A stretch of 64,000 nucleotides of DNA, from the NCBI GenBank assembly GCA_963708025.1, contig CAVPSB010000007.1:32001-96000 (forward strand), written 5' to 3'. The notes beneath the pieces were generated by a model. It saw only the letters and a program-made list of their open reading frames with translations, ran no database searches and was not told the origin of the DNA. Below, one piece after another: positions 472 to 63,065 of this stretch. The position numbers and the translations under genes are program-made. Source of the stretch: an uncultured Candidatus Rokubacteria bacterium. Its GTDB lineage: Bacteria; Methylomirabilota; Methylomirabilia; Rokubacteriales; DASRDR01. Every line of letters starts with the position of its first letter. Positions within the stretch are counted from its first letter, which is position 1.

Positions 472-714
472 TGGGCAGGGCCGATGAGCGTCGCAATGTC
501 GATCTCGGTCGTGGGACGTCGCTCGGCCGCAGGCCTCGCGTACGTCCGACAGGTCGTCGTTTGGACGGCCTTCGGCCTTTGGGTCGTCGCCGATCCTCGG
601 TGTACTCGGAGTACGCCTGCGGTCGGCAGACTCCCGGCGTCCGAGCGCTGCTCGCTCCTCGGCCCTGCCCCCGAGAAGGTGGCCATCCCCCATGGCTTTG
701 AAGCTTCGAGGAGT
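472..714 (+). repeat. Family A structured intergenic repeat, copy A1
   Basis: GGGCCGATGAGCGTCGC...GTCGCCGATCCTCGGTGTACTCGGAGTACGCC...GCTGCTCGCTCCTCGGCCC, shared with 4 other loci; CTAG at 468-471 and 715-718. Confidence 0.9.
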
Positions 715-816
715 CTAGTGCGCTAGTCGCGCGATCGTCGAGCCGATCAGGACGACGATGAGGACGGCGACGATCGCACCGATTCCGGCTGCCCACATGC
801 GCGCATGGTCGCTCAT
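715..816 (-). CDS. 33-aa single-TM small protein ([33 protein letters not shown])
   Basis: GGAGGG RBS; ATG overlaps upstream TGA (ATGA); one hydrophobic helix. Confidence 0.6.
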
Positions 817-1808
817 GACTTCTCCCTCCGGGTGGTCCGGGTGAGCTGCTCGATCAGGGTCGTGTCGGCGGGTGGGAAGGGCAGGCGAGCCATCTCCCGC
901 GGCGTGACCCAGCGGACGGGCTGATTCTCGCGGGGCTCGACCGGCTGATCTCCGATCTCGCAGCGGAAGAAGTGCAGCACGACCCGCTTCTCCGGATAGG
1001 TCCAGGGTACGACGGCGAGGCGGTCGCCCACGCGGGCGTCCACGCCCAGCTCCTCGGCTAGCTCCCGCCGCAATGCCGCCTCCAGGCTCTCGCCGGGCTG
1101 TCGCTTCCCGCCGGGAAACTCCCAGAGCCCGGCCAGATGCTTTCCTTCGCCCCGCCGGGTCACGAGGTAGCGGCGGCGGCGCGACACGACGGCGGCGACG
1201 ACCTCGACCACCGGGTAGCCGGCGCGGGCGGCCAGCTCGGCGAAGAGGGCGAGCAGCGACGGCCGGTACCCTGGCCAGACGCTCGGGTGGCGGCTCGCGT
1301 TCGCCGGGTGGAGGAGGACGACGACTTCGCGGCCGTCCCGCGAGAGCCGCCTCCCGTGGTCGTCCGGCAGGCGGATGGGCTGCGGGACGACGGCGCGGGC
1401 GGCGACGCCGCCGACGGCCACCACGACCGACGGGTCGAGCGCGGCGATCTCCCGGGCAAGGAACGGGCCGCAGCGGACCACCTCCGAGCGCAGGGGGCCC
1501 CGGTTCGCCGGCTTCCGACCGGGGGCGGACGGCCAGCACTTCACCGCGTTCGTGAGGTAGAAGAGGTCCTCGAGATCGAGGCCCAGGCGGCGGATCTCGC
1601 GGCGGAGCACCATCCCGCCGGCCCCCGTCCACTGCCGCCCGTTCTCGATGCTGGCGATCCCGGGCGCCTCCCCGACGAGCATGAAGCGGGCGTCGCGCCG
1701 CCCGGCGGCGGCGCCCGGGAACTTGCGGTACGGCTGCATGGTCGGGCAGACCGTGCAGCGTCCGACCGCGCCCAGGAGGCGGCCGAGCCCGCGGGAGGCG
1801 GCCGTCAT
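813..1808 (-). CDS. Uracil-DNA glycosylase (family 4/5-like, Fe-S) fused to a MutT-like Nudix hydrolase
   Basis: CTVC, LVGEAPG, TNAVKC and LLHPA UDG motifs; complete Nudix box [26 protein letters not shown] at 1808 overlaps the mutY stop. Confidence 0.85.
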
Positions 1809-2497
1809 CGGCCGTCCCAGGGGAAGGCCCGGCAGAAGCCCCGCATGGGACACGGCAGGCAGAGTGGCTTGCGCGGGGTGCACCAGGTGGCGCCGAAGTC
1901 CATCAGGGCCTGGTTGAAGTCGTAGACGCGGGCGCGGGGCAAGAGGATCTCGGCCAGCCGCCAGAGCCCCGCCGTGCCGAGGTGCCGGCCGTCCTTGCCG
2001 TGGAAGACGCGGCCGAGGACGCGGCGGACGTTGGTGTCGAGGATCGGCGCCCGGCGACCGAAGGCGAAGGAGAGAACGGCCCCGGCGGTGTAGCGGCCGA
2101 TCCCCGGCAGCGCCTGGAGCGCCGCGTCTTCGTCGGGGAGCCGGCCGCCGTAGCGGGCCATGGCCTCGCGGGCGATGCCGTGGAGGTGTAGGGGCCGGAT
2201 GTTGTAGCCGAGCGGGTACCAGGTGCGGCGCACCTCGCTCACGTCGGCGGCCGCGAGGTCCGCGAGGGTCGGGTACCGGCCGAGGAACTCCCGGTACTTG
2301 GGGATCACTCGCTCGACCTGGGTCTGCTGGAGCATGATCTCCGATACCAGCACATGATACGGGTCGCGGGTGCGCCGCCACGGCAGGTCGCGGTGGTGCC
2401 GCCCGTACCAGCGAAGCAGCGCCTCCCGAAAGCGCCGGCGCAGCGCCGGCGAGGGCGCCGGGTGACGCGGAGCCCGGCCGGCCCTGGCCCTCGTCAC
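1805..2497 (-). CDS. mutY: A/G-specific adenine glycosylase, catalytic domain only
   Basis: [23 protein letters not shown], HhH motif LPGIGRYTA, Fe-S motif [17 protein letters not shown]; protein ends right after the cluster. Confidence 0.88.
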
Positions 2498-2502
2498 GCC
2501 CG

Positions 2503-11394: not shown

Positions 11395-12483
11395 ATGGGC
11401 CGCGCCCGCCTCCGCGATCTCGGGATCGAGCTCGGCCACTGGCCGACGGGCCCCCTCAATGCGATCACCGACGTCCCGGGGGTCCTGGTCGGCCACGCCA
11501 GCGTGATCCGCGACGTCCCGCGGGTCGCCCGGACCGGCGTGACCGTGATCGTCCCCGCCGAGGACGTCGGCCGGCGGTTGCAGGTCTTCGCCGGCTACGA
11601 GTCCCTGAACGGCAACGGCGAGATGACGGGTCTCCTGTGGGTCGCCGAGTCGGGATTCCTGACGACGCCGATCGGGATCACCAACACCCAGGACGTGGGC
11701 ACCGTCCGGGATGCGATCTCGTCCCAGCTGTTCGAGCGGCATCCCGAGGCCCGCTTCTTCCTGCCGGTCGCGGCCGAGACCTACGACGGCTGGCTCAGCG
11801 ACATCAGGGGCGCCCACGTGACGAAGGCCGAGGTCGCCGAGGCGCTGGGGGCCGCCCGGGACGGCCCGGTGGCCGAAGGCAACGTCGGCGGCGGCACCGG
11901 CATGATCTGCCACGAGTTCAAGGGCGGGATCGGCACGGCCTCCCGGGCCGTGACCACGCGGAGCGGGCAGTACACCGTGGGCGCCCTCGTCCAGGCGAAC
12001 TACGGGCACCGCCGGCTCCTCCGGGTCGACGGCGTGCCGGTCGGCCGGGAGATCGGTCACGACCGGGTCCCGAGCGCCTGGGGGCACCCGCGTCACGACG
12101 GCTCCATCATCGCGGTGATCGCGACCGACGCCCCGCTGATCGCCGGGCAGTGCGTCCGGCTCGCCAAGCGGGCGACGGTGGGCCTGGCCCGCGCGGGCGG
12201 GGTCGCCCACAACGGGAGCGGCGACATCTTCCTCGCCTTCGCCACCGGCAACGCGGTGCCGGCCGCCCCGCCCGCCCCGGTCGAGGTCAGGATGCTGCCG
12301 AACGAGCACATGGATCCGCTCATCGAGGGCGCGGCCGAGGCCGTCGAGGAGTCGATCCTCAACGCGCTCACCGCCGCCGAGACGATGACCGGCTTCCAGG
12401 GCCATCAGGCCCACGCCATCCCGCTGGACGACCTGGGGCTGGTGATGCAGCGGTACGGGAGAAGGGCCGGAGCTTCCTCGTGA
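11395..12483 (+). CDS. P1/S58-family (DmpA-like) aminopeptidase
   Basis: RARLRDLG, NAITDVPGVLVGH, EGNVGGGTGM, DGSII autoprocessing site. Confidence 0.88.
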   Translation: MGRARLRDLGIELGHWPTGPLNAITDVPGVLVGHASVIRDVPRVARTGVTVIVPAEDVGRRLQVFAGYESLNGNGEMTGLLWVAESGFLTTPIGITNTQDVGTVRDAISSQLFERHPEARFFLPVAAETYDGWLSDIRGAHVTKAEVAEALGAARDGPVAEGNVGGGTGMICHEFKGGIGTASRAVTTRSGQYTVGALVQANYGHRRLLRVDGVPVGREIGHDRVPSAWGHPRHDGSIIAVIATDAPLIAGQCVRLAKRATVGLARAGGVAHNGSGDIFLAFATGNAVPAAPPAPVEVRMLPNEHMDPLIEGAAEAVEESILNALTAAETMTGFQGHQAHAIPLDDLGLVMQRYGRRAGASS

Positions 12484-12934: not shown

Positions 12935-13756
<822 letters not shown>

Positions 13757-13783
13757 CGGCGGGCCGCGATCGGAACGTCAAGA

Positions 13784-14423
13784 ATGAGAGGCCTGACCCT
13801 GTTCCGCCTCTGCCTGGTGACCGACCGCCGGGCCACGGCGGGCCGACCGCTGCTCGGCGGTCGTCGAGGCGTGCCTGGGCGCCGGCCTCCGCGCCGTCCA
13901 GCTCCGCGAGAAGGATCTGCCGGCCCGCGATCTCCTCCACCTGGCGACCGACCTGCGGGCCCTGACCGCCCGTCACCGGGCGCGCCTCGTCGTCAACGAC
14001 CGCGTCGACGTCGCCCTCGCGGTCGGCGCCGACGGCGTGCACCTTCCCGGCGCCGGCCTGCCGCCGGCCGCCGCGCGCGCTCTCGTGGGACCGGAGCGTC
14101 TCGTCGGCGTCTCGACCCACTCGGCGGCAGAGGCCGAGGCCGCCGCGACGGAGGGTGCCGACGTCGTGTTCTTCGGTCCGATCTACGACACCCCGTCCAA
14201 GCGATCGTTCGGCGAGCCCCGGGGGCTGGCGGAGCTGACCGTGGCCTGCCGGAAGACCCGGCTGCCGGTGATCGCGATCGGGGGCGTGACCGCCGTCCGG
14301 GTGCCGGAAGTGCGGGAGGCCGGGGCCGCCGGGGTGGCCGTCATCCGCGCGTTGCTCGAGGCCGAGGACCCGGCCGCCGCCACCAAGGCGCTGCTCGCCG
14401 CCTGCGAGCGGGCCTGGCCATGA
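13784..14423 (+). CDS. thiE: Thiamine-phosphate synthase (frameshift near 13860)
   Basis: LCLVTDR, VQLREK, VVNDRVDVA, GVSTHS, FGPIYDTPSK, VIAIGG. Confidence 0.85.
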
Positions 14424-24963: not shown

Positions 24964-24977
24964 GGGCCTGAGGCTGA

Positions 24978-25067
24978 GAGCGCGTGAAGCAACCGGGTTC
25001 TCCGACTCCCCCCTCCCCCCAGTGGGTGGGGGAGGGGGGCTGGGGGGGAGGGCGGGAGGTCCCGAAC
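24978..25067 (+). repeat. Family B repeat, copy B1
   Basis: GTGAAG...CCCCCCTCCCCC-loop-GGGGGAGGGGG...GGGCGGGAGGTCCCGAAC; bounded by TGA and TAA. Confidence 0.9.
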
Positions 25068-25070
25068 TAA

Positions 25071-26645: not shown

Positions 26646-26658
26646 CGGCCCCCTCCCG

Positions 26659-26871
26659 GTGCCCTTCCGGCTGCCGCAGCTCGGCCGCCCCCAGGACACC
26701 TGGCCCGGCGTCACCATCAGCGGCGCCGTGATCCTGGCCGCGGCCGTTTTGGCCGACGCCTTCGGCGACCCGCCGCGCGGGGGGCCCCGCCTGATGGTCG
26801 GCCTTGCCCTCGGCTTCGTCCTCCTCGTCCTCGGCTACCTGCTCCGTTACTGGGAGCGGCGCCGCCCCTGA
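26659..26871 (+). CDS. Small two-TM membrane protein
   Basis: 70 aa, two hydrophobic helices, basic C-terminus. Confidence 0.55.
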   Translation: MPFRLPQLGRPQDTWPGVTISGAVILAAAVLADAFGDPPRGGPRLMVGLALGFVLLVLGYLLRYWERRRP

Positions 26872-26883
26872 CCCTCTAACTAA

Positions 26884-26974
26884 AGAGAGTCCAAACCAAG
26901 CGGTCCCTCCGGCACCCCCCTCCCCCCCAGTGGGTGGGGGAGGGGGGTCGGGGGGTGGGAGGGAGGTCCCGAAC
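26884..26974 (+). repeat. Family B repeat, copy B2
   Basis: Same C-tract/G-tract hairpin and GGGAGGTCCCGAAC end; preceded by TAA. Confidence 0.85.
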
Positions 26975-26977
26975 AAT

Positions 26978-29153: not shown

Positions 29154-29321
29154 GTGGAGGCTACGGGGGCGTCGCTAGCGGTTTCCCACCGAGGACCGAG
29201 CCGCCCTGGGACGACGGGGCGCGAACGTCGCCGACGCGACCACTAGAGTAGGACCGTTCGCGCAACCGGAAAGACGGCCCGGGGCGCGGGGCGTGCGGGG
29301 CCAAGTGACGAGCCTGGCTAG

Positions 29322-32934: not shown

Positions 32935-32949
32935 GTCTCGCCGATGTCC

Positions 32950-36775: not shown

Positions 36776-36837
36776 CGGTTCGCGCCGGTTCCCTGGGCGC
36801 TCTCCTCGGGACTGGCGATCGACCCCACACCCCGGCT

Positions 36838-38832: not shown

Positions 38833-38998
38833 CCTCGAGCCGTAGATCCACCTGAGCGGCCGCACGCGACGGCGGCTCTCGAGCAGATCCGCCGCCGGCG
38901 GCATTTCCCGGCGGGATTCACCACGCCCGCTCCAATGCGTGGCAGAAATGCGCGCCGCTCATGATATCGTTTGCTCACGCACCGATGGAGAGCAAACC

Positions 38999-40096: not shown

Positions 40097-40153
40097 CCGC
40101 GGCGCCAGGGTGGCAGCACCGCCGTGGCGCTAACGGGCGTGAGGAGTGTGAGG

Positions 40154-41326: not shown

Positions 41327-41377
41327 GGAGTGTTCAGGGGGACCTCGGGAGGTCTTCCGAGCCCCCCCCGGAGGCTC
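41327..41377 (-). repeat. Partial family C repeat (C0)
   Basis: CGGGAGGTCTTCCGAG(C)CCCCCCGGAGGC nearly identical to 45661-45690. Confidence 0.65.
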
Positions 41378-41740
41378 TCAGTCGTCCGGCGCGCCGGCGT
41401 CGGCCGTCACGATGACACGGTCGTCGGCGACGCGGACGGCCAGGCGATAGAGGCCGCCGCCCCCGCACGGGCCCCCGGCGCAGTGCCCGGTGTCCGGCTC
41501 GTACAGGGCCCCGTGGGTCGCGCAGATGAGCAGCCGGCCGTCATCGGTGAAGAACTCGTTCGGCCACCAGTCCAGGGGCGTGCCGGCGTGGATGCACTGG
41601 TTGACGTAGGCGTGGAAGGCGCCGTCGAAGTTCACCACGAAGGCCTCGACCCGGCGGCCGCGCCAGCGAAGCGGGAACTTCGCGGAGGCGCCGGGAGGAA
41701 GATCGCGGGTCGGTACGGACCACTCGTCGGGATCGCTCAT
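41378..41740 (-). CDS. Rieske [2Fe-2S] ferredoxin-like protein
   Basis: NQCIH...ICATHGALY...GHCAGGPC. Confidence 0.88.
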   Translation of the reverse strand: MSDPDEWSVPTRDLPPGASAKFPLRWRGRRVEAFVVNFDGAFHAYVNQCIHAGTPLDWWPNEFFTDDGRLLICATHGALYEPDTGHCAGGPCGGGGLYRLAVRVADDRVIVTADAGAPDD

Positions 41741-41952
41741 GGGGGCCTCCTCGAAGACGCCAGGGTAGACCATCCGGTCTCGCGCCGCCAGAGGGAGGGG
41801 CAATGCGGGAGGGGCAATGCGCCGGCGGATCGGCGGCGTCCACCCGGCGGCGGTCCGGCCGACATGGCGAGAGAGGCCTTGCCGGCTGGGCGACAAGGGG
41901 GCTGGACCGGGCCGGCTGCGGAGGCGAGAAACCCGCGTGGTAGAGTGGGTTT

Positions 41953-42906
41953 GTGACGATCCACGCGTCCGAGCCCCCCGCCGTCGAGGTCCGCGACCTA
42001 GGGAAGACCTTCCGGTCGGGGTGGCCCCGACGCCGTGACCAGGCGGCCCTTCGCGGGGTGTCCTTCCAGGTTCCCCGGGGCGCCATCTTCGGCGTGCTGG
42101 GCCCGAACGGAGCCGGCAAGACGACCCTGCTGTCGATTCTCGCCACGCTCCTGCTTCCCGACCGCGGGGAAGCGCGGGTGCTCGGGCTCGATGTCGTCCG
42201 CGATGCCGCGCGGCTTCGCGAGCGGATCAACATGGCGGCGGGGAGCACCTCCTTCCCCTGGAGCCTTTCCTGCCGTGAGGTGCTCGACATCACCGGGCGG
42301 AGCTACGGCCTCGCGGGGCGCGAGCGGGCCCGCCGGGTGGGCGCGCTCCTGGACCAGTTCGAGCTGGCGGCGTTCGCCGACACGCCGTACAACGAGCTGT
42401 CCACGGGGCTCAAGCAGCGACTGGCCCTCGCCAAGGGGTTCGTCAACGACCCCGAGGTCCTCATCCTCGACGAGCCAACGGTCGGCCTGGATCCCGACAT
42501 CTCGGTCCGGATCCGCGAGCAAATCGCGACGCTCCGCCGGGCCCGACGGATCACCATCCTGCTCTCGACCCATTACATGCGCGAGGCCGAGCAGCTCTGC
42601 GACGAGATCGTCTTCCTGCGAGACGGGTCGATCCTGGCCCGCGGAGAGGCGGCCACCCTCAAGCGCCAGATCCTGGCCGGTGACCGGATCGCCATGAGCG
42701 TGGAGGGCGACTGGAGCGGGGTGGCGGCGCTGCCGGGCGTCCTCTCGTGCCGGCGGGACGGGGGCCGGATCGAGTGCGTGGTGGACGACGCTCGGAAGCG
42801 ACTGCCCGAGCTGTTCCGCTACCTGGTAGAGCAGGGGGTCGCGGTCAGCGACGTGACGGTGGCGGAGCCGAATCTGGAGTCGGTCTTCATCGAGCTGGCC
42901 CGATGA
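41953..42906 (+). CDS. ABC-2 exporter ATP-binding protein
   Basis: GPNGAGKTT, LSTG, ILDEPTVGLD, STHYMREAE. Confidence 0.92.
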   Translation: MTIHASEPPAVEVRDLGKTFRSGWPRRRDQAALRGVSFQVPRGAIFGVLGPNGAGKTTLLSILATLLLPDRGEARVLGLDVVRDAARLRERINMAAGSTSFPWSLSCREVLDITGRSYGLAGRERARRVGALLDQFELAAFADTPYNELSTGLKQRLALAKGFVNDPEVLILDEPTVGLDPDISVRIREQIATLRRARRITILLSTHYMREAEQLCDEIVFLRDGSILARGEAATLKRQILAGDRIAMSVEGDWSGVAALPGVLSCRRDGGRIECVVDDARKRLPELFRYLVEQGVAVSDVTVAEPNLESVFIELAR

Positions 42907-42999
42907 GGGCGTGTGAGGCATTCGGCTCCCTCCGGCTCCCCCCTCCCCCCGGTGGGTGGGGGAGGGGGGTTGGGGGGGGGTAGGCGGGAGGTTCCAAAT
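42907..42999 (+). repeat. Family B repeat, copy B6, inserted at the ATPase/permease junction
   Basis: TGA at 42904 and 43000. Confidence 0.9.
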
Positions 43000-43796
43000 T
43001 GACGGCGCTGAGGCGGGAGGCGATCAAGACCTCGGCCTTCTTCCTCAAGAGCTGGCGCATGACGCGGCGGAACGCCCTGACCGTCTTCGAGGTGGTGTTC
43101 TGGCCCGTCGTCAGCCTCCTCTCGGTGGGGCTCATGACGGCGTTCCTCGGCGTCGATCCGCGGACCACCGTCTTCGTGCTCATCGGGACCCTGGCCTTCT
43201 CGGTCGTCCAGGTGTGCCAGCTCGACGTCGCCTACGTCGTCCTGTTCGACATGTGGGGCAAGAGCCTCCGCCACCAGTTCCTCGCGCCCGTTCAACCCTG
43301 GCACATGGCGCTGGGGGGCTGGCTGATGGGCGCGCTGCGGGGGGTCGTTGTCTTCGTGTTGATGGCCGGCGTGGGCCGATGGGCGTTCGGCGTCAGCTTC
43401 TTCGACCAAGGGTGGGCGCCCACGGTCGGGTTCGTCCTCGGGCTCCTGCTGTCCGCGGGCGGGATTGGGCTGATCGTGGCGGCCCTGCTGCTCCTGTTCG
43501 GCGTCCACGCCGAGGTCACCGCGTGGTCCGGCGTCAGCCTGGTCCTGCTCCTCTGCGGCATCTACTATCCGGTCTCGATGCTGCCGGCGCCCCTGGCCAC
43601 GGTGGCGGCCGCCATCCCCCTGACCTACTTCCTCGAGGCCTTCCGCCAGGGCTACGGCTTCGCCCCCGTCTTCCCGGTTCCCTGGCTCCGGGGCTTCGCG
43701 ATGGCCCTGGCCTACCTCACGGCCGGCTACGCCACCTTCACCTGGGCGATCTCCCGGGCGCGGCGAACCGGCATGCTCCTGAAGCTCTCTGACTAG
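42999..43796 (+). CDS. ABC-2 type permease
   Basis: About six TMs; GIYYPVSMLP, IPLTY; follows the ATPase. Confidence 0.85.
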   Translation: MTALRREAIKTSAFFLKSWRMTRRNALTVFEVVFWPVVSLLSVGLMTAFLGVDPRTTVFVLIGTLAFSVVQVCQLDVAYVVLFDMWGKSLRHQFLAPVQPWHMALGGWLMGALRGVVVFVLMAGVGRWAFGVSFFDQGWAPTVGFVLGLLLSAGGIGLIVAALLLLFGVHAEVTAWSGVSLVLLLCGIYYPVSMLPAPLATVAAAIPLTYFLEAFRQGYGFAPVFPVPWLRGFAMALAYLTAGYATFTWAISRARRTGMLLKLSD

Positions 43797-43935
43797 AATC
43801 GTACCGCGCCGGGCCTGGCCGGCCGGTGGTCCGGGGGCAGACCGAGGCCTCGCCTGGCCGCAGGCCGACGCGACGCGGGCCGGAAGTGCCGGAGTTCCAG
43901 GGGTTTCCGATTCGTTGGTGCTGCCGTCCGGGAGT

Positions 43936-43951
43936 TGGCACCGCGCTGGCA
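43936..43951 (+). promoter_or_regulatory. Candidate sigma54 -24/-12 promoter
   Basis: TGGCAC-CGCGC-TGGCA, GG-N10-GC spacing. Confidence 0.45.
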
Positions 43952-43982
43952 TAATCAAGGCAAGGAAGGAGGACGCCTAGCG

Positions 43983-45050
43983 GTGGACGGCACGGTCTGG
44001 CGGTGGTTCTGCGGGGTCGCCGACCGGCAGCGTGCCCGCCGGGTCCCGCTCCCCGGGCTGGTCACCTGCGGAACGAGCCCCCTGTCCGAGGCCGACTGCC
44101 TGGATCCGCGGTGCCTGGACGATCCCTCCCGCCTGTACCCGCCGCCTGCCCCGGTCAAGCCCGATGTCTGGGAGACGATCGACCAGGCGGACGGCGTTGA
44201 GGTCGAGAGGCTCTCCTTCCCCAGCTCGGCGCCCTTCGGGATCACCCTCAACGATCGCGTGACGGTCCGTTTCTTCCGGCCGGCCAGTCGCCCACCCGTG
44301 TTCAGCCTCCTGATCCTTCACGGGATCTGGCGGCAGGACCAGGAGTTCGAGGACAAGCTCTGCCGCTCCCTGGCCCGGCAACGCGTGAGCTCGGCGCTGA
44401 TCTCGCTGCCCTTCCACTGGGAGCGGGCACCCGAGGGAGCACCCAGCGGGGCCTACTTCCTCTCGGGCAACCCGCTCTGGACCTCGTCGGCGTTCCGGCA
44501 GGCGCTCATCGACGCGCGGGGCGTGTTAGGCCTCCTGCGTGGCCGCGGGGTGCCCGTCGGCGTGTTCGGATTCAGCCTGGGCGGGATCATCGCGCACATG
44601 CTGATGGCGATCGAGCCGCTCGATTTCGGCGGCTCCGCCTTCGCCGGCGGCGACACCGCCGGCATCGTCTGGGAAGGCGTCCTGACCCAGCCGTACCGCG
44701 AGGCGATGGAGGCCGGAGGGGTCACCCGGGAACGGCTCTCTCAGCTCTGGGCGACCGGAGACCCGACCCGGTATGCCCACTTGCGCCGGCCCTCGCGAAT
44801 GCTTATGCTCAACGCACGGTACGACCTGTGCGTGCCGCTCCGGTTCACCCTGGCACTGTGGCGGGCCCTCTGCGAGCCGTCGATCCGGTGGCTCCCGGCC
44901 GGTCACATCACGGGGTTCCTCTTCCGCGACACGATCGTGGCCGAGGTACTGGCAGCCCTGGGGCTGCCGCGCCCGGTGCAGGCGTCACGACGCCTCGGCC
45001 TTCCGTGGCGCGTGGAGCCGGCGGCGCACCAGATCCGCTGGGCGTCCTAG
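43983..45050 (+). CDS. Alpha/beta hydrolase
   Basis: GFSLGG nucleophile elbow, YDLCVP, AGH. Confidence 0.8.
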   Translation: MDGTVWRWFCGVADRQRARRVPLPGLVTCGTSPLSEADCLDPRCLDDPSRLYPPPAPVKPDVWETIDQADGVEVERLSFPSSAPFGITLNDRVTVRFFRPASRPPVFSLLILHGIWRQDQEFEDKLCRSLARQRVSSALISLPFHWERAPEGAPSGAYFLSGNPLWTSSAFRQALIDARGVLGLLRGRGVPVGVFGFSLGGIIAHMLMAIEPLDFGGSAFAGGDTAGIVWEGVLTQPYREAMEAGGVTRERLSQLWATGDPTRYAHLRRPSRMLMLNARYDLCVPLRFTLALWRALCEPSIRWLPAGHITGFLFRDTIVAEVLAALGLPRPVQASRRLGLPWRVEPAAHQIRWAS

Positions 45051-45692: not shown

Positions 45693-46886
45693 TCAGAGCG
45701 GCTCGACGAGGACCGGCTCGCCGGCCTTCACGTCGCCGCGGTCCTCCTCGAGGATGATCAGGCAGTTGGCCGCCACCATCGAGGAGAGGATGCCGGAGCC
45801 CTGGGGGCCGGTGGTGGAGACCTCCCAGCCCCGCTCGCCGAAGCCGAGGATTCCCCGCTTGAACTCGCGCCGCCCGGGCTTCTTCCGCATCGGCTCGGTC
45901 GCGGTCGCGGTGAAGCGGGACGGCTCGAGCTCCCGGCGGCCTGCGAGCTTCCAGAGCGCCGGCCGCACGAAGAGGAGGAAGCAGAGCATCGAGGCGACCG
46001 GGTTCCCCGGCAGGCCGAAGAAGTGGCTCTCGCCGATCCGGCCGACCGCCATCGGCCGCCCCGGCTGCATCGCCACCTGCCAGAAGTCGATTCCGCCGAT
46101 CTCGGCCAGGACCTGCTTGACCAGATCGTAGACCCCGACCGACACGCCGCCCGAGCTCACCACGACGTGCGCGACCTCGGCCGCCTCGACGAGGCGCGTG
46201 CGCAGCACATCCCGGAGGTCGGGAACGATCCCGAAGTCGATGGGAGTGGCCCCGGCCGCCTCGACCAGCCCGTGGAGGGAGAAGCGGTTGGCGTCGTAGA
46301 TCTGCCCGGGCTTGCGCGGCAGCCCGGGCTCGACCACCTCGTCGCCGGTCGAGAGCAGGACGACCCGCGGGCGGCCGTGGACCCAGACGTCGGGAAGGCC
46401 GAGCGAGGCGAGGAGTCCCAGCTCCTGTGGCCGGAGGACGGTCCCGCCGCGGAGCACCTCGGTGCCGGCCGAAACGTCCTCGCCGCGGGCCCGCACGTTC
46501 GCGCCGGGCTCCACGGGCTGGAGCCAGACCGCGTCCTCGTCCCTCTCCGCCAGCTCCTGGGGCACGACGGTGTCGGCGCCGGCCGGCATCGGGGCGCCGG
46601 TCATGATGCGGAGGGCCTCGCCGGGGCCCAGCGTCCCCGCGTAGGTCGAGCCGGCCGGGAGGTCGCTGACCACCCGCAGCCGAGCGGTCCCGCCCGCCTT
46701 CAGGTCCGCCGCCCGCACCGCATAGCCGTAGACGGCCGAGTTGTCGGCGGGGGGCACATCGAAGGGCGCGAGCACGTCCCGGGCGAGCACGCAGCCCAGC
46801 GCGTGCGCGACCGACACCGACTCCGGTGAGATCGGGCGGATGACCTGGGCCAGGATTCGAGCCTGCCCGTCGGCGACGGAGATCAT
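45693..46886 (-). CDS. moeA: Molybdopterin molybdenumtransferase
   Basis: DNSAVYGYAV, RIMTGAPMP, STGDE, SSGGVSVG, GLPGNP. Confidence 0.92.
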   Translation of the reverse strand: MISVADGQARILAQVIRPISPESVSVAHALGCVLARDVLAPFDVPPADNSAVYGYAVRAADLKAGGTARLRVVSDLPAGSTYAGTLGPGEALRIMTGAPMPAGADTVVPQELAERDEDAVWLQPVEPGANVRARGEDVSAGTEVLRGGTVLRPQELGLLASLGLPDVWVHGRPRVVLLSTGDEVVEPGLPRKPGQIYDANRFSLHGLVEAAGATPIDFGIVPDLRDVLRTRLVEAAEVAHVVVSSGGVSVGVYDLVKQVLAEIGGIDFWQVAMQPGRPMAVGRIGESHFFGLPGNPVASMLCFLLFVRPALWKLAGRRELEPSRFTATATEPMRKKPGRREFKRGILGFGERGWEVSTTGPQGSGILSSMVAANCLIILEEDRGDVKAGEPVLVEPL

Positions 46887-49311: not shown

Positions 49312-50103
49312 GTGGAGCTGGGGCTGCAGGGACGAGTGGCGTTGGTCACCGGGGGCTCGAAGGGGATCGGGCGGGCGTGCGCGGCCGCGTTCGCGGCCGA
49401 GGGCGCGCGCCTGGCGCTCTGCGCGCGGGGCGCCGAGGGGCTGGCGAGCGTCGCGGAGGAGCTGGGCGCGAAGGGCGCCGAGGTGCTCACGATCGCCGCC
49501 GATCTCGCGGAGCCGGAGGCGGCGCGGCGAGTCGTCGAGGGCGTCCTCGCCCGGTTCGGGCGGCTGGACATCCTGGTGAACAACGCCGGCGCCATCCGCG
49601 GCGGCGATTTCCTCGGCACGCCGGCCGAGCAGTGGGCGGAGGACTGGCGACTCAAGATCCTCGGCTACACTCGCCTGGCCCAGGCCGTCCTCCCCCCCAT
49701 GCGGGCGCGGCGCTGGGGCCGCATCATCAACATCATCGGGGCCGCCGCCCGGAACCCCACGCCGGACTACATGGCCGGCGGCATCGCCAACGCGGGTCTC
49801 ATCAATTTCACTCGCGCGCTGGCCGACCTCGGCGCGCCGGATCAGATCCTCGTCACGGCGGTGAGCCCCGGGGCGACCGCGACCGAGCGGTGGGACGGTC
49901 TGGTCGCCCAGCGGGCACGCGCCCAGGGACGCGCCTCCGAGGATCTCCGTCGTGAGCTCGAGCGGGCCCAGCCGCTGGGGCGGATCGGCCGGCCCGAAGA
50001 CGTGGCCGATCTGGTCGTCTTCCTCGCCTCCGAGCGCGCGAGCTTCCTGACCGGTGTGTCGATCACGGTGGACGGGGGGACCAGCCGCGGCGTCTACCTG
50101 TAG
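49312..50103 (+). CDS. SDR oxidoreductase
   Basis: VTGGSKGIG, ILVNNAG, VDGG. Confidence 0.9.
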   Translation: MELGLQGRVALVTGGSKGIGRACAAAFAAEGARLALCARGAEGLASVAEELGAKGAEVLTIAADLAEPEAARRVVEGVLARFGRLDILVNNAGAIRGGDFLGTPAEQWAEDWRLKILGYTRLAQAVLPPMRARRWGRIINIIGAAARNPTPDYMAGGIANAGLINFTRALADLGAPDQILVTAVSPGATATERWDGLVAQRARAQGRASEDLRRELERAQPLGRIGRPEDVADLVVFLASERASFLTGVSITVDGGTSRGVYL

Positions 50104-50300
50104 CGGGGCCGATGAGCGTCGCAATGTTCGTCTCGGTCGTGACGCGGTCGGCCTGCGGCCTCGCGTCCGTCCCGACCTCTGGTCGTCCTCGGTCGTCGCC
50201 GATCCTCGGCGTACCAGGAGTACGCCTCCGGTCGGGGACTCCCTGCGTCCTTCGGACGGCCTTCGGCCTGTGGGCGCTGCTCGCTCCTCGGCCCCGCTCC
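50104..50300 (+). repeat. Family A repeat, copy A4
   Basis: TAG-[CGGGGCCGATGAGCG...CGCTCCTCGGCCCCGCTCC]-TAG. Confidence 0.9.
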
Positions 50301-50347
50301 TAGGTCCCTGGTGTTTTCCACTTAGGTGGTTTTGCGGAAAAACCTGC

Positions 50348-51089: not shown

Positions 51090-51410
51090 TCAGTCCGTCG
51101 TCTGGTCGGGTTCCGACCCGGGTGCCCCGGGTGGCCGCTCGGCGCTGTACACGTCGTAGCCGGCGTCGCGGTGCAGGATCCGGAACCCCGCTTCCCATCG
51201 AGCCGCCTGCTTCGGCGTCAGGCCACGGCGTGGGCGTGATCGACGCCGCTCGGGGGCGGCGGGCGGAGGCTGCCCGCCGGGGGGCGCAGTCCGACGGTCG
51301 AAGACGACCGCGACCCGCCGGTCCGTCTCGAACAATCGCCGGAGACTCTCGTGGAGGTCGGGCCGGTCTGGCCGCACGACGATGATCCACTCGGACATGG
51401 CGTCCATCAC
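51090..51410 (-). CDS. Small hypothetical protein with DRR/ERRR motifs
   Basis: IIVVRPDRPDL...VVFDRR...ERRR; fills the gap downstream of the LOG gene. Confidence 0.65.
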   Translation of the reverse strand: MMDAMSEWIIVVRPDRPDLHESLRRLFETDRRVAVVFDRRTAPPGGQPPPAAPERRRSRPRRGLTPKQAARWEAGFRILHRDAGYDVYSAERPPGAPGSEPDQTTD

Positions 51411-54523: not shown

Positions 54524-54735
54524 CGGGCGGGACCGATGAGCATCGCATGGCGTCGTCCTTCGGACGGCCTTCGGCCTTTGGGGTCGTCGCCGATCCTCGG
54601 AGTACTCGGAGGACGCATGCGGTCGGCGACTCCCTGCGTCGGTTGGACAGCCTTCGGCCTGGGGGCGCTGCTCGCTCCTCGGCCCCGCCTCCAAGAACCG
54701 ACTCCTCCGCCATGGTCATGACGTCCCACGGACTC
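54524..54735 (+). repeat. Family A repeat, copy A5
   Basis: CCGATGAGC...GTCGCCGATCCTCGG...GCTGCTCGCTCCTCGGCCCCGCC; CTAA left, CTAG right. Confidence 0.88.
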
Positions 54736-54847
54736 TAGTGCCGGTGGAGGGGGCGCCGGCCCCTTTCTGACCATCCCCTCTGGTCACATCCTGGGCGCCC
54801 CTCACTCGCCTCGCCGGGTTCCCAAGGGCTGGCGAGCAGTTGGAGCC

Positions 54848-56559: not shown

Positions 56560-57396
56560 GTGACTCGCCTCCGGTTCGTCGCGGCGCTCCTGGTGCTGGC
56601 GCTCGGGCCCTTCGCCCCGGCCGACCGGGCGGCGGGCGCCGACGACTTGCCCATCGTCGACACGCATCTCCACTACAGCCGGAACGCCTGGGCCCAGTAC
56701 GCGCCCGAGGCCGTGCTGGCGATTCTCGACCGCGCAGGCGTCCGGCGGGCGTTCGTGTCCAGCACCCCTGACGACGGAACGCTCCAGCTCCACCAGGCGG
56801 CGCCCGACCGCATCGTCCCGGTCCTCCGCCCGTACCGCGAGTCCGGGGACCTCGGAACCTGGCACGCGCACGCCGACGTGGTGGCCTACCTGGAGGAGCG
56901 CCTCCGCCGGGGCGTTCACCGCGGTATCGGCGAGTTCCACCTGTACGGTGACGACGCGCGATCCGTGGTGGTGCGCCAGGTCGCCGATCTCGCCCGGCAG
57001 CGCGGCCTGTTCCTCCACTGCCACTGCGACGCGGAGGCGGTGGAGATCCTCCTCGGGCTCGGCGCGGACCTGCGCGTCCTGTGGGCCCACGCCGGGATGT
57101 CCTCGGGGCCGGACGTCGTCGGGCGCCTGCTCGCCCGCCATTCGAATCTCTCCGTCGAGCTAGCCCTCCGCACCGACGTCGCGCCGGGTGGCCGACTCGA
57201 TCCGGACTGGCGGGCGCTCTTCCTCCAGTACCCGGACCGCTTCATGGTGGGGACCGACACCTGGACGCCGTCGCGCTGGAACGACGTGCCGGCCGCCCAG
57301 GACGCGGTGCGGGTGTGGCTGCGCCAGCTCCCACCCGACGTCGCGGCCCGGATCGCCCGGGAGAACGCCGAGCGCCTCGCCGCCGGCAAGCCTTGA
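56560..57396 (+). CDS. Secreted amidohydrolase-family protein
   Basis: Signal peptide; IVDTHLHY, GIGEFH, WAHAG, FMVGTD. Confidence 0.82.
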   Translation: MTRLRFVAALLVLALGPFAPADRAAGADDLPIVDTHLHYSRNAWAQYAPEAVLAILDRAGVRRAFVSSTPDDGTLQLHQAAPDRIVPVLRPYRESGDLGTWHAHADVVAYLEERLRRGVHRGIGEFHLYGDDARSVVVRQVADLARQRGLFLHCHCDAEAVEILLGLGADLRVLWAHAGMSSGPDVVGRLLARHSNLSVELALRTDVAPGGRLDPDWRALFLQYPDRFMVGTDTWTPSRWNDVPAAQDAVRVWLRQLPPDVAARIARENAERLAAGKP

Positions 57397-57646
57397 AAAC
57401 ATCGGGGGGGTCTTGGAAGATCCCCCCGAGGCTCCCCCTCGGAGGCCGCGGCCAAGCCGCGGCTCGAAGCGGAACGCCGCGGTCGCGCGGCCATAGGCAG
57501 TGGGTTGCGCGAGGCCGATGGGTGATCGGGAGCGCGGCGCCGGCGAGTTCTAAAGAGCGTGTGAAGCATTTGCGGGCCTTCCGGCTCCCCCTCCCCCTGG
57601 TGGGTGGGGGAGGGGGTTGGGGGGGGGGGAGGCGGGAGGCCCCGAA
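57397..57646 (+). repeat. Composite repeat: family C copy C3 (57397-57550), TAA, family B copy B7 (57554-57646)
   Basis: Direct similarity to the other C and B copies. Confidence 0.87.
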
Positions 57647-60418: not shown

Positions 60419-61330
60419 ATGCTGCTCGACGGGAAGGTGGCGGTCGTGACGGGGGCCGGTCGTGGGATCGGCCGGGAGATCGCCCTCATGATGGCCGGCG
60501 CCGGGGCCCGGGTGGTCGTCAACGACTTCGGCGGCCGGGAGGACGGGACCGGTGGCGCCACCTTGCCGGCAGACGAGGTCGTGAAGGCGATCGAGGGGGC
60601 CGGAGGCCGGGCGGTCCCGAGCTACGAGTCGGTGGCGTCCATGGCGGGCGGCCAGCGCATCGTCGAGACGGCGCTGGACAGCTTCGGCCGCCTCGACATC
60701 GTCGTGAACAACGCCGGCGTGCTCCGGGACCGGATGATCTTCAACATGACCGAGGAGGAGTGGGACACCGTCATCGCGGTCCACCTCAAGGGGAGCTTCG
60801 CCGTCACCCGGGCGGCGGCACCCCGGTTCAAGGAGCAGCGTTGGGGTCGCTTCGTCAACATGACGTCCACCTCCGGGCTGGTCGGCAACATCGGGCAGGC
60901 GAACTATGCCGCGGCCAAGCTCGGCATCCTGGGCCTGACGCGGGTCACCGCCCTCGACATGGCCCGCTACAACGTGACCGCCAACTGCATCTCGCCGTTC
61001 GCCTGGACGCGGCTGATCGGCACGATCCCGACCGACACGCCGCAGCAGAAGGCACGGGTGGCCAAGCTCGAGAAGATGTCGCCCCGGGACATCGCGCCCC
61101 TGGCCGTCTACCTGGCCTCCGACGACGCGGCCGGCGTGTCCGGGCAGATCTTCGGCGTCCGCGGCAAGGAGATCTTCGTCTTCTCCCAGCCCCGACCGGT
61201 GCGCTCCATCCACCACGCCGAGGGCTGGACCCCCGAGCGACTCGCCGAGGTGCTCCCGGGCAGCCTGGGGCACCACCTGACGCCGCTCGAGACCTCCGGC
61301 CAGTACTTCGCCTATGATCCGCTCGTCTGA
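60419..61330 (+). CDS. SDR oxidoreductase (hydroxyacyl-CoA dehydrogenase-like)
   Basis: VTGAGRGIG, VVVND, NNAGVLRD, NYAAAK. Confidence 0.9.
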   Translation: MLLDGKVAVVTGAGRGIGREIALMMAGAGARVVVNDFGGREDGTGGATLPADEVVKAIEGAGGRAVPSYESVASMAGGQRIVETALDSFGRLDIVVNNAGVLRDRMIFNMTEEEWDTVIAVHLKGSFAVTRAAAPRFKEQRWGRFVNMTSTSGLVGNIGQANYAAAKLGILGLTRVTALDMARYNVTANCISPFAWTRLIGTIPTDTPQQKARVAKLEKMSPRDIAPLAVYLASDDAAGVSGQIFGVRGKEIFVFSQPRPVRSIHHAEGWTPERLAEVLPGSLGHHLTPLETSGQYFAYDPLV

Positions 61331-61463
61331 GAGCGTGTGAAGGGATGGGGTTCTCCGGCTCCCCCCTCCCCCCCGGCCAGAGGCCGAAGGCCGTCCATGA
61401 GTGGGGGAGGGGGGCCAAAGGCCGAAGGCCGTCGATGGATCGGGTGGGCGGGAGGTCCCGAAC
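61331..61463 (+). repeat. Family B repeat, copy B8 (two hairpin modules)
   Basis: Follows the SDR TGA; nearly identical to B9. Confidence 0.9.
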
Positions 61464-62905
61464 GCAGATCAACCGAAGGGGGGCCCGCCACGCCCTCACG
61501 GGCGGCTGACCTGCGGCCCGCCCGGGCCGAGCCGCGCGCGCCCCGCCTCCCCGGTCCTCGCCGCCTCGCGCTGAGCCTCCTGGCCCTGGCCGCCGCGGCC
61601 ACGGCCGGAGCGGACGCCGTTGGCCTCCTGGTCACCGTGGGCGAGGTCGGCGACCGCGCGGCCGTCGTCTGGGTCCGGGCACCCGCGCCGGGGCCGGTGA
61701 TCCTGCACGTCGGCCCGAGCGGGCGGCCGGGAGGGCGCCGGCAGATCCGAGACCAGGCGACGCCGGCGACCGACCTCACGGTCAAGCTGCGCGCCGAGGG
61801 ACTCGCTCCCGCCACACGCCACGCTTACCGGGTGGAGGCCGCCGGGGAGGTGGTGGACGGGGAGTTCGTGACCGCCCCCGAGGCCAGCGCCACCCGCCCG
61901 CTCACGCTCGTGTGGAGCGGCGACCTCGGTGGCGCCGGGCGCTGCCGCTCACCTGGATCGGGCTACCCGATCTTCCGGGCGATGGCCGAGCGTCGGCCCG
62001 ACGTCTTTCTTTTCGTCGGTGACACCATCTACGCCGACCATCGCTGTGGCGGGCCGGAAAACGTGCCGGGCGCCGACTTCCGCGCGGCCGATCTCCCCGG
62101 GTTCCGCGCCAAGCACCGCTACAACCGCGCCGATCCCGCCGTGCAGCGGTTCTTCCGGACGACGGCGGTGTGGGCGATCTGGGACGACCACGAGGTGCGG
62201 AACGACTTCGCGGGGCCCATCGAGCCGCTCATGCCCACCGGTCGACGGGCGTTCCTCGACTACTGGCCGATCCAGCCGCCGGCCGACGATCCGTTCCGGC
62301 TCTACCGGCGGCTCCGCTGGGGACGGCTCGTCGAGGGCTTCATCCTGGACACCCGGCAATACCGGAGCCCCAACGGCGTGTCCGACGGGCCGGGGAAGAC
62401 GATGCTGGGCGAGGCGCAGCGGCAGTGGCTCCTGGCCGGGCTTCGTCGCTCGGACGCCGTCTGGAAGCTGGTGATCTCCAGCGTATCCCTCTCGATCCCG
62501 ACGGGGCGGGTCGCGCGGGACAGCTGGGCGAACGGCAGCACCCACTTCACCCCCGCCGGCACGCCGACCGGCTTCGAGCACGAGCTCCTGCGAATCGTCG
62601 GTGAGCTGGCCGAGGGGCGGATCAGGAACGTGGTCTGGGTAGTGACCGACGTCCACCGGGCCGAGGTGATCCGTCACACGCCGCAGCCGGGGCTCGTCTT
62701 CCACGAGCTGGTCGCGGGACCGCTCTCTGCCGGAGCGGGTCGGCCCGGGGTCCTGGACGACACGCTGCGGCCCGCCCGGCTCTTCGGCGAGGGTGGCTAC
62801 TACAACTTCGGGGAGCTCCGCGCGACCGCGGACGGGCTCGAGGTGCGGATCATCGACGTCGACGGCCGGGTTCGCTTCGAGACGACGCTCACGCCCGAGC
62901 GCTGA
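61464..62905 (+). CDS. phoD: Alkaline phosphatase D family protein (start uncertain)
   Basis: Signal-like RRLALSLLALAAA; GDTIYAD, IWDDHEV, LDTRQYR, TDVH. Confidence 0.85.
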
Positions 62906-62932
62906 CGCCCGAGCGAGTCCTCCCGCGCCTCA

Positions 62933-63065
62933 GTTCGGGACCTCCCGCCCACCCGATCCTTCGACGGCCTTCGGCCTTTGGCCCCCCTCCCCCACCCATG
63001 GACGGCCTTCGGCCTTTGGTCGGGGGGAGGGGGGAGCCGGAGGACCCCATTCCTTCACATATCTC
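62933..63065 (-). repeat. Family B repeat, copy B9
   Basis: TGA-[element]-TGA on the minus strand; the upstream TGA is the Uma2 stop. Confidence 0.9.

Follow-up and report, generated by a model that had tools for sequence, protein, structure and literature searches.

Three families of hairpin elements adjoining stop codons in the genome of an uncultured soil bacterium

Repeat elements in the window and in the genome

The stretch of DNA analyzed here (the window, 64 kb) comes from a soil bacterium of an uncultured lineage. Repeat finding, reading of the individual loci, and the coverage of blast matches between the window and the genome revealed 15 repeat-rich intergenic loci containing 18 elements, which were assigned to family A (five), family B (nine), and family C (four) (Table 1). 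The original prediction had counted 5 A, 9 B, and 4 C elements, and the same numbers were obtained; its limits, 472 and 63065, are the positions at which A1 starts and B9 ends. Its single D element is probably the REPIN-like inverted doublet in the last row of Table 1, whose arms match inverted repeats flanking RAYT-like genes of relatives.

Table 1. Positions, strands, and surroundings of the repeat elements in the window
Element	Position	Strand	Surroundings and form
A1	472-718	+	after TAG 469-471; ends CTAG; inverted ends of ~24 nt plus 3' tail, long hairpin
A2	28109-28356	+	after TAG 28106-28108; terminal CTAG overlaps stop (CTA) of convergent minus-strand gene 28353-29153
A3	50104-50303	+	no tail; bounded by its own inverted ends; TAG 50101-50103 at left, CTAG at right end
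A4	54524-54738	+	after TAA 54521-54523 (TAG in G001 and G002); ends CTAG
A5	29243-29490	-	after TAG stop (CTA 29491-29493) of minus-strand gene 29491-30318; ends CTAG
B1	24978-25067	+	short form; gene stop TGA 24961-24963; further TGA directly 5', TAA directly 3'
B2	26884-26974	+	12 nt past TGA stop 26869-26871; TAA directly 5'; 3' GGAGG 12 nt upstream of ATG 26978
B3	31094-31181	+	in divergent spacer; preceded by a TGA that is not the stop of any called gene
B4	31185-31312	+	long form, two small hairpins added; in tandem after B3 via TGA; TGA at 3' side
B5	32117-32259	+	long form with a different insert; after TGA stop 32114-32116; TGA at 3' side
B6	42907-42999	+	between an ABC ATPase gene (TGA 42904-42906) and its ABC-2 permease gene, hence inside an operon; TGA at 3' side
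B7	57554-57646	+	in tandem after C4 via TAA; ends 10 nt upstream of ATG 57657
B8	61331-61463	+	long form; after TGA 61328-61330
B9	62933-63065	-	long form; after stop (TCA 63066-63068) of minus-strand Uma2-family gene; TCA 62930-62932 at far end
C1	41327-41377	-	first hairpin of family C on its own; flanked by convergent genes (TAG 41324-41326, TCA 41378-41380)
C2	45537-45692	-	first base adjoins stop (TCA 45693-45695) of minus-strand moeA
C3	50924-51089	-	adjoins TCA 51090-51092, stop of a doubtful ORF
C4	57397-57550	+	after TGA 57394-57396; three hairpins in series
REPIN-like inverted doublet	13726-13800	+	behind GTAG

The elements of the three families are 90 to 270 nt long and consist of GC-rich hairpin modules. 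Their predicted modularity was confirmed, since end and hairpin modules are common to B, C, and A. The A core has terminal inverted repeats, and the predicted fold of A is a single long, closed hairpin (z -5.3); that of C4 is a series of hairpins (z -3.3). Terminal inverted repeats are lacking in B and C, whose two ends are unlike and in which only the internal hairpin is palindromic. The fold of B was no better than that of shuffled sequences (z -0.7 to +0.1), because its G and C runs pair anyway. Family A and the REPIN-like doublet start with (G/C)TAG, after which comes a G-rich stem, while B is tagged with TGA and C with any stop. Unlike at an intrinsic terminator, no T run was seen after the hairpins when the loci of the 18 window copies were read, and no Rfam match in the 64-kb window reached the gathering threshold.

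An nhmmer search of the whole genome (an 8.17-Mb MAG with a completeness rating of 99.7% and 72% G+C) gave 855 matches (405 of B, 273 of A, and 177 of C), which merged into 792 loci and accounted for 1.08% of the MAG. The elements are extragenic and high in copy number, with the midpoint of 32 of these loci falling within a called gene; they leave ORFs intact, as had been proposed. Genes were called with a home-made, crude codon-usage caller, whose stops are reliable and whose starts are unreliable. The median pairwise identity between copies was 83-88%, that to the nearest neighbor was 93-94%, and a neighbor of at least 98% identity was found for 10 B copies only. The copies of A, B, and C are not young.

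Stop-codon adjacency and the triplets at both ends

The original prediction held that the elements begin near a stop codon in the sense of the gene. In the window, 14 of the 18 elements start 0 to 12 nt past the stop of a called gene; the exceptions are B4 and B7, which lie behind other elements, C3 at its doubtful ORF, and B3 behind a non-gene TGA. Across the genome, the 5' end lay in sense and no more than 3 nt from a called stop in 131 of 276 B, 107 of 154 A, and 119 of 158 C copies. The corresponding values were 0.5% for random intergenic positions and 12-14% (expected) for T-R-R triplets drawn at random from stops and non-coding DNA. In this genome-wide enrichment test at stops, the predicted association with T-R-R triplets was therefore far above intergenic chance. 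The stop used was TGA in 120 of the 131 B copies and TAG in 79 of the 107 A copies, and C used 68 TGA, 41 TAG, and 10 TAA, compared with 67% TGA, 28% TAG, and 5% TAA in the genome. The stop preference is family-specific: TGA for B, TAG for A, and any stop for C.

The base immediately 5' of the triplet was C in 104 of 146 B, 43 of 68 A, and 48 of 71 C copies (63-71%), whereas C precedes the stop in 2959 of all 7029 called genes (42%). Therefore, the site reads CTGA or CTAG. The elements of A, B, and C were positioned directly 3' of CTGA, CTAG, or C-T-R-R in a single orientation. The spacers holding the loci were divergent in 27 cases, co-directional in 581, and convergent in 150, and 794 of the 5956 spacers in the genome are divergent. 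The adjacency to stops could owe much to selection rather than to targeting; the excess of C ahead of the triplet speaks for a sequence target. In addition, a coding ORF started within 15 nt past the 3' end of B in 95 of 377 cases, compared with 131 of 3000 control positions.

Triplets at both ends, another feature noticed in the original prediction, were found in the window at A1, A2, A4, and A5 (TAG or TAA in front, CTAG at the end) and at B4, B5, B6, and B9 (TGA on both sides). The two tandems described there were also recovered (B3-TGA-B4 and, in the numbering of Table 1, C4-TAA-B7), and 16 of 276 B copies in the genome start directly behind another element. TGA was present on either side of 58 of 184 full B copies, TCA on either side of an antisense B subfamily, and TAG at both ends of 21 of 60 A copies. 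However, in the informative copies of A, B, and C, the 3' triplet does not change along with the 5' triplet. The 3' triplet is TAG in all four A copies whose 5' triplet is TGA or TAA, TGA in both B copies preceded by TAA, and TGA, CGA, or TCG in the C copies preceded by TAG or TAA. In A and the main C subfamily, the 3' triplet remains that of the family even where the 5' stop differs.

Filled and empty sites among strains and relatives

Empty sites were found both at the strain level and in other genera. In one strain pair, a 125-nt C-type element fills the site on contig C13 (C13:381873-382002), and the site on contig C40 is empty (C40:8086-8088); the empty allele has a single TAG, and in the filled allele a TAG flanks the element on either side. 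In a second pair, contig C33 is filled and carries TAG, contig C4 is empty and carries TGA, and the spacer is rearranged as well.

Genomes of other genera (among them G001-G005 and G021) were compared with the present genome (G000). The C4+B7 tandem was absent in five of five (G001-G005), A2 in four of four (G002, G003, G004, and G021), B2 in three of three (G001, G002, and G003), B1 in two of two (G003 and G004), and A5 in three of five (G001, G004, and G021). A3 was absent in three of three (G002, G003, and G004), in which the stop is TGA, compared with TAG in G000. At the B6 site, almost no spacer was present in two out-of-family genomes, each of four same-family genera had a different insert, and TGA occurred on both flanks in G000, G001, G002, and G003. 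A-like copies in five other genera start directly after TAG or TAA, and 32 of 40 relatives, from across the order, have the A core hairpin. In agreement with the original prediction, the elements are non-coding and dispersed, with gain and loss of copies among strains and genera.

Candidate mobilizers and the origin of the elements

No transposase was present in the window, as first noted. In the genome (MAG 99.7% complete), there were no matches to Y1/RAYT (PF01797), TnpB (PF07282), the IS5-type domains PF13359 and PF13586, or RT (PF00078). No pair of element ends enclosing a gene-sized insert with a transposase was found genome-wide, and no element ends flanked the seven IS110, five DDE_Tnp_1 (IS4-like), and three IS91-fragment loci. 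The search thus yielded no RAYT/IS200-605, IS5, IS110, or RT gene with element ends in the genome. A RAYT-like gene was present in 13 of the 40 relatives, flanked by other inverted repeats, and nhmmer detected no A, B, or C element beside the RAYT-like genes of those 13.

It is probable that A, B, and C are non-autonomous REP/BIME/MITE-like elements that insert after a family-specific stop tetranucleotide by means of an enzyme acting in trans, for which the HUH type fits best. Integration would occur directly 3' of a short, asymmetric, stop-like site with a preceding C, namely CTGA for B, CTAG for A, and C-T-R-R for C. The far end of the element would carry or regenerate the same tetranucleotide; therefore, each copy would be bracketed by stop-like triplets and provide the next insertion with a new site, giving rise to tandem and nested mosaics. 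C-T-R-R-type sites would be rare outside stop codons at 72% G+C, so insertions would pile up at gene ends. Since insertion just past a stop would keep the ORF whole and the GGAGG at the 3' end of B can be used by the following cistron, copies in such places would be tolerated and accumulate in the sense of the gene. The moving enzyme would be encoded outside the present assembly. We infer the insertion chemistry and the identity of the enzyme from the anatomy, to which a single-strand HUH mechanism (RAYT/IS200-605-like) appears to be the best fit because of the fixed orientation to an asymmetric tetranucleotide, the unpaired tag followed by a hairpin, the absence of inverted ends from B and C, and a tag at the far end that does not change with the target. 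The non-autonomous mobile system originally predicted is partly supported, as to dispersal, ties to T-R-R triplets, modularity, and gain or loss, with targeting of stops and a target duplication as possible features.

IS200/IS605-derived elements have no terminal inverted repeats, carry hairpins near their ends, and insert with a fixed orientation immediately after a family-specific tetranucleotide, while the far-end tetranucleotide belongs to the element. B and C resemble them in the absence of inverted ends, the hairpins near the ends, the oriented insertion 3' of a tetranucleotide, and the element's own far-end tetranucleotide. On the other hand, the genome has no Y1 or TnpB, and A has long inverted ends.

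The ends of A are also those expected of classical MITEs, that is, deletion derivatives of a DDE IS (IS5-like or similar) that duplicates 3 to 4 bp of its CTAG or CTGA target and has itself been lost or left unassembled. The IS5-type target site is CTAG, and A shares with IS5-family MITEs the CTAG at both ends, the inverted ends (~24 nt), the small size, and the stop-codon sites; A3 is bounded exactly by these repeats, TAG, and CTAG. A duplication would also account for the single and double TAG of the C13/C40 strain pair and for the TGA/TGA and TCA/TCA flanks of B in its two orientations. However, such an origin is unlikely: the CTGA of B is another site, B and C have unlike ends and only an internal palindrome, the 3' triplet is independent of the 5' triplet in informative copies, no transposase is enclosed by element ends, no IS5-type transposase with these ends (PF13586 or PF13359) was found, and the five PF01609 genes (frames of 415-543 aa) have no elements nearby. 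IS110/IS1111-type DEDD recombinases directed by guide RNA, which could move the elements in trans or use them as landing pads with the shared triplet as the recombination core, are a still more doubtful source. They are the sole intact site-specific transposase family without classical inverted ends found here (seven loci). One copy (C13:384226-385513) lies 6 nt past a TAG stop, exactly at the position of the A element on the sister-strain contig C40, and G003 has a short IS110 derivative behind the TAG stop at the A5 site. The left end of the C13 copy occurs in ~58 solo copies in the genome. The end hairpin of this IS shares 14 identical nt with the central hairpin of B, but this match consists of low-complexity C and G runs; moreover, the IS110 termini are unlike those of A, B, or C, no A/B/C ends lie beside any IS110 locus, and seven transposase genes stand against ~800 elements without a common junction sequence. 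A mobile-element class of its own, with C-T-R-R as the integration core, families tuned to different stops, and a mover outside RAYT, IS200/605, IS5, and IS110, is quite unlikely; such a mover would be either an enzyme or a process of the host tied to gene ends in the transcribed or single-stranded state.

With three co-resident families, different stop preferences, and no recognizable transposase, the present genome is a clean natural system for studying site choice by REP-like elements and their mover, neither of which is known to be settled even for classical REPs. Although the sequences had not been recognized in the original prediction, elements of this kind are already described: GTAG-REP termini often provide TAG stops according to the accessible parts of Di Nocera et al. 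(2013; PMC3733652). Bertels and Rainey (2011; PMC3116915) are also said to have treated the REP/REPIN/BIME group. As far as the available portions of PMC3733652 and of Nunvar et al. (2010; PMC2817692) extend, GTAG-REPs, REPINs, and BIMEs are likewise high-copy extragenic hairpins with an unpaired tag at one end, lie mainly in co-directional and convergent spacers, form mosaic composites, and give the upstream ORF its TAG stop; the (G/C)TAG and G-rich stem of family A and of the doublet are GTAG-REP-like. By the same partial sources, their units are 20-40 nt, compared with 90-270 nt here, and they differ from B with its TGA tag, from C, which takes any stop, and from the far end here, which bears the same tetranucleotide. 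The REP/REPIN systems with RAYT also differ in that this genome has no RAYT and other repeats surround the RAYT-like genes found in relatives.

A host function was also considered, in which the elements are mRNA 3'-end stabilizers, termination or ribosome-stalling hairpins, or intercistronic spacers that are kept by selection and spread by recombination with no dedicated transposase. It agrees with the fixed sense orientation, the start 0-3 nt past the stop, the strong hairpins, the GGAGG that B places ahead of the next cistron, and the A core hairpin conserved across the order. In the available part of PMC12306157, REPs located no farther than 15 nt from a stop codon are reported to stall ribosomes and reduce translation; the hairpins here likewise begin within the footprint of the terminating ribosome. 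By the count in that part, ~11% of E. coli REPs are near a stop, compared with 47-75% of the 5' ends here. As the main explanation, host function is highly improbable given ~800 loci behind unrelated genes, presence or absence between strains and genera, differing inserts at one orthologous site (B6), the preferred C before the triplet, and hairpins with no T run after them. Function and mobility are not mutually exclusive. The elements probably influence mRNA ends, translation termination, and cistron coupling in this abundant uncultured soil lineage, judging from their positions; a strong, repeat-borne hairpin forms the immediate end of about one gene in ten (792 loci versus ~7,000 called genes).

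Hairpin elements behind stop codons

Repeat finding, locus reading, an alignment of the B copies and a window-versus-genome coverage map placed 18 elements at 15 intergenic loci of the window, and the numbers of copies originally predicted for the three hairpin families A, B and C were all recovered. The original prediction that most elements begin a few nucleotides past a stop codon in the sense orientation was also borne out: 14 of the 18 started 0-12 nt past a called gene's stop in that orientation. B4 and B7 each lie in tandem behind another element, across TGA or TAA, C3 adjoins a doubtful ORF, and B3 lies within a divergent spacer. The one element previously assigned to a fourth type, D, is probably the inverted doublet listed in the table. 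The TGA triplets preceding B1 might have been left by earlier rounds of insertion or excision, or could have arisen by chance. Against Rfam, the 64-kb window gave no match at gathering score. The neighbors of the elements were ordinary chromosomal genes (HlyD, amidohydrolases, short-chain dehydrogenases, MoCF/MoeA, ABC ATPase and permease, Kelch protein, PhoD and Uma2). The window has a G+C content of 72%. It also contains a tandem array within coding sequence, representing a low-complexity protein repeat, and a tRNA call that is doubtful because of its length and place.

Features and their locations. Positions without a contig name are window coordinates; the other locations are on contigs of the source MAG (G000).
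Feature	Location	Description
Family A		5 window copies; approximately 200-250 nt
Family B		9 window copies; approximately 90 nt, or long forms of approximately 130-145 nt with extra small hairpins
Family C		4 window copies; 51-166 nt
REPIN-like inverted doublet	13726-13800	behind GTAG
TGA triplets	24961-24977	three in 17 nt, from a gene stop to B1
Tandem array	33931-34271	18-nt period; very GC-rich
tRNA-Pro(TGG), ARAGORN	12337-12434 (-)	98 nt; inside called ORF 11395-12483
IS110 DEDD		7 loci in the MAG
DDE_Tnp_1		5 loci in the MAG
Y2 (IS91)	C18:52786-53019; C12:226761-226964; C31:12132-12314	3 weak matches; C-terminal fragments
IS1111-like IS (IS110/IS1111-like)	C13:384226-385513; C15:72468-73754	1288 nt; 98.7% identical; subterminal inverted repeats
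1.56-kb repeat	C2:141254-142812 and 7-8 more loci	86-90% identity; HNH-motif gene
881-nt insertion	C34:215134-216016 versus C31:15381	in a DDE_Tnp_1 transposase gene copy; starts GTGCAG

The MAG comprises 8.17 Mb in 49 contigs; its completeness is rated at 99.7% and its contamination at 8%. Its genes were predicted by our own crude codon-usage caller (7,049 genes), of which the stops are reliable and the starts are not. Profile HMMs made from the window copies gave 405 B, 273 A and 177 C matches, which merged into 792 loci covering 1.08% of the MAG. Elements were found on nearly all contigs at approximately 10 per 100 kb, and contig C7, of which the window spans 32001-96000, was the densest (27 per 100 kb). 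The spacers holding these loci were co-directional in 581 cases, convergent in 150 and divergent in 27, divergent spacers making up 794 of 5956 genome-wide; the midpoint fell within a called gene at 32 loci.

The 5' end was located at most 3 nt from a stop, in the sense orientation, in 131/276 B, 107/154 A and 119/158 C copies, compared with 0.5% of random intergenic positions and orientations. Thus, the predicted enrichment at stops over intergenic chance is clear for all three families. A random choice of stop-like triplets (T-R-R, the TGA/TAG/TAA class) in non-coding DNA plus stops would put 12-14% at stops, an expectation whose denominator is an upper bound since the intergenic set takes in uncalled genes. 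The genes abutted by B ended in TGA in 120 of 131 cases and those abutted by A in TAG in 79 of 107, whereas those abutted by C ended in TGA (68), TAG (41) or TAA (10); the genome itself uses 67% TGA, 28% TAG and 5% TAA. B therefore prefers TGA and A prefers TAG, and C mirrors the stop usage of the genome. Furthermore, when tandem copies were excluded, the abutting triplet was preceded by C in 104/146 B, 43/68 A and 48/71 C copies, compared with 2959/7029 stops across all called genes. Because of this excess, the sites read CTGA, CTAG and C-T-R-R. Selection for a place behind a stop would by itself need no preceding C, and these results therefore point to a target chosen by sequence.

Anatomy and terminal triplets

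Folds were computed on real window copies. Family A folds into a single long, closed hairpin (-142 kcal/mol, z -5.3) with inverted ends of approximately 24 nt that start right at TAG; a 3' tail of approximately 47 nt, terminating in CTAG, is present in most copies. Family B opens with an unpaired head of 16 nt, followed by an imperfect long hairpin made up of C and G runs, and the conserved 3' end of the family contains GGAGG. The B fold was not better than that of shuffled sequences because C and G runs always pair. Family C consists of serial hairpins (z -3.3 for element C4). The families share modules. A small hairpin of family A is present twice in the long B forms, one end of an antisense B subfamily is the first 10 nt of C, the terminal part of the main C subfamily is an inverted copy of the B head, and part of the A tail is similar to an inverted stretch of C. 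The GGAGG of B sits at the place of the native ribosome-binding site, and a coding start lay at most 15 nt past the B 3' end in 95/377 cases compared with 131/3000 controls. B thus fits inside operons.

Stop triplets at both ends, which had been predicted for many elements, were common in full B copies and in A copies: 58 of 184 full B copies were flanked by TGA on both sides and 21 of 60 A copies by TAG, and TCA occurred on both sides in the antisense B subfamily. On the other hand, the informative copies speak against a simple target duplication. All four A copies whose 5' triplet is TGA or TAA terminate in TAG, both B copies behind TAA terminate in TGA, and the main-subfamily C copies terminate in TGA, CGA or TCG independently of the 5' stop. 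Since the 3' triplet does not track the 5' one, the far-end tetranucleotide looks element-borne, as it is in IS200/IS605-type elements. Alternatively, the host stop may have changed after insertion.

Empty sites, age and range

Empty orthologous sites, on which the predicted mobility depended, were found both in a strain pair and in other genera. Contigs C33, C39, C40, C41 and C46 of the MAG are strain variants, 88-99% identical to parts of the larger contigs C4, C16, C13, C17 and C13, respectively. The bin also contains a second, related strain; its presence accounts for the 8% contamination and supplies natural allele pairs. In the one clean pair, contig C40 has the stop TAG once, whereas contig C13 has the same flanks plus a 125-nt C-type element with TAG on both sides. 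A second pair was not clean, as contig C33, with a short A (stop TAG), and contig C4, without it (stop TGA), differ in the spacer. Two more strain pairs showed a short B versus a long B at the same site.

Other genera within the family showed good synteny over 30 kb, and presence or absence was read from aligned orthologous spacers in the genomes of relatives (G001, G002 and so on). The site of elements C4 and B7 was without them in all five of G001-G005, where the spacers are 26-78 nt and the stop TGA is invariant. The A3 site was without the element in G002, G003 and G004, where the stop is TGA versus TAG in the MAG, and the A2 site in G002, G003, G004 and G021, with native stops TAG or TAA. 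Absence was likewise found for A5 in G001, G004 and G021, for B2 in G001, G002 and G003, and for B1 in G003 and G004. At the A5 site, TAG is followed in G002 by an A-like copy of its own and in G003 by an insert of another kind. At the A4 site, the stop is TAA in the MAG and TAG in G001 and G002. The B6 site, between ABC ATPase and permease genes, has almost no spacer in two out-of-family genomes and a different insert in each of G001, G002, G003 and G005; TGA stands on both sides in the MAG, G001, G002 and G003. These differences at orthologous sites indicate that the sites are hit repeatedly or turn over.

Metagenome runs with near-identical DNA came from soil and bog. Part of 24900-32300 was contained in 20 of the 24 runs listed (at best 0.40 of the sampled words), soil and bog runs X1-X10 contained 26-40% of window words, and no RNA run containing window DNA was among those listed. 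The contigs of runs X1, X2, X3 and X7 are short and broken at repeats, and no locus-specific empty allele for 24900-44899 was readable among the joints listed. The joints 28132 to 28212 and 31135 to 31262 were rejected as empty alleles, having sides of 19-27 nt that look like other family copies.

The median pairwise identity of copies was 83-88% and the nearest-neighbor identity 93-94%; only 10 B copies had a neighbor with at least 98% identity. The families are therefore no fresh burst. Of the 40 relatives, 11, most of them from the same family, had the B hairpin and 3' end, and 32, across the order, had the central 70-nt hairpin of A. A-like copies in five genera start directly past TAG or TAA, with CTAG at the end where seen. 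A search of 185,579 species genomes for a B 18-mer yielded no more than 30 single matches, which fell in unrelated taxa.

Candidate mobilizers and the mode of insertion

The original prediction named RAYT/IS200-605, IS5, IS110 or reverse transcriptase genes as possible partners, and none with element ends was found in the MAG. Searches of the MAG for Y1/RAYT (PF01797), TnpB (PF07282), DDE_Tnp_4, DDE_Tnp_1_2 and RVT_1 gave no match. No transposase in the MAG was enclosed by a pair of element ends. Candidate autonomous copies, namely pairs of 5'-only and 3'-only elements and inverted pairs of B end modules, proved to be separate elements around ordinary genes. A single RAYT-like (PF01797) gene was present in 13 of 40 relatives, flanked by inverted repeats unlike A, B and C; these repeats recur in the MAG, where they form 19 inverted doublets, that of the window among them. 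The genes and their repeats resemble the "TIRYT" genes with GGGGWSAS repeats in PMC3733652.

Two further repeats were noted in the MAG. The 1.56-kb repeat, which we take by eye to be a DUF222/HNH, "13E12-type" multi-copy gene, was rejected as it is unlinked to the elements. From its GTGCAG start, the 881-nt insertion might, at a guess, be an ORF-less group II intron; RVT_1 was absent from the MAG.

We consider it fairly likely that all three families consist of non-autonomous, REP/BIME/MITE-like elements, with insertion in one orientation directly 3' of CTGA, CTAG or C-T-R-R and with the same tetranucleotide at the far end. The chemistry of this single-orientation insertion is conjectural. A far end bearing the target tetranucleotide would offer a further site, which accounts for the tandems (16 of 276 B copies begin behind another element). 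In this G+C-rich genome, CTGA, CTAG and C-T-R-R sites are scarce outside stops, and insertion at a stop leaves the ORF whole.

As the mover, a single-strand HUH enzyme would fit the anatomy best and is tentatively put forward. The Y2 matches represent remnants of a rolling-circle IS; Y2 was rejected as the mobilizer since only C-terminal fragments were found, with no A, B or C nearby. A DDE parent as the source of the elements seems unlikely; DDE_Tnp_1 loci do occur in the MAG, and element ends flanked none of its DDE_Tnp_1, IS110 or Y2 loci. IS110-type recombination is less probable still. The C13 copy of the IS1111-like IS is separated by 6 nt from a preceding TAG stop and occupies the position of an A element in contig C40; the left end of this IS (first 76 nt, a C/G-rich hairpin) occurs in approximately 58 solo copies, and the end hairpin has 14 nt in common with the B hairpin. 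This IS may target or derive from another hairpin repeat family, and its connection to the A, B and C elements is a lead and not a link.

Hairpin repeats that supply a stop are already in print, as PMC3733652 describes GTAG REPs whose tag supplies a TAG stop. Neither the present families nor TGA-tagged repeats were described in the main texts of the literature searched. The new features are the co-occurrence in a single genome of three interrelated families that differ in stop preference, one of them being tagged with TGA; a tetranucleotide site of the form C-T-R-R; far-end tags that look element-borne; recurrent hits at one orthologous site; and the lack of a RAYT in the MAG. By analogy with the E. 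coli work cited in PMC12306157, the elements may plausibly affect mRNA ends or termination.
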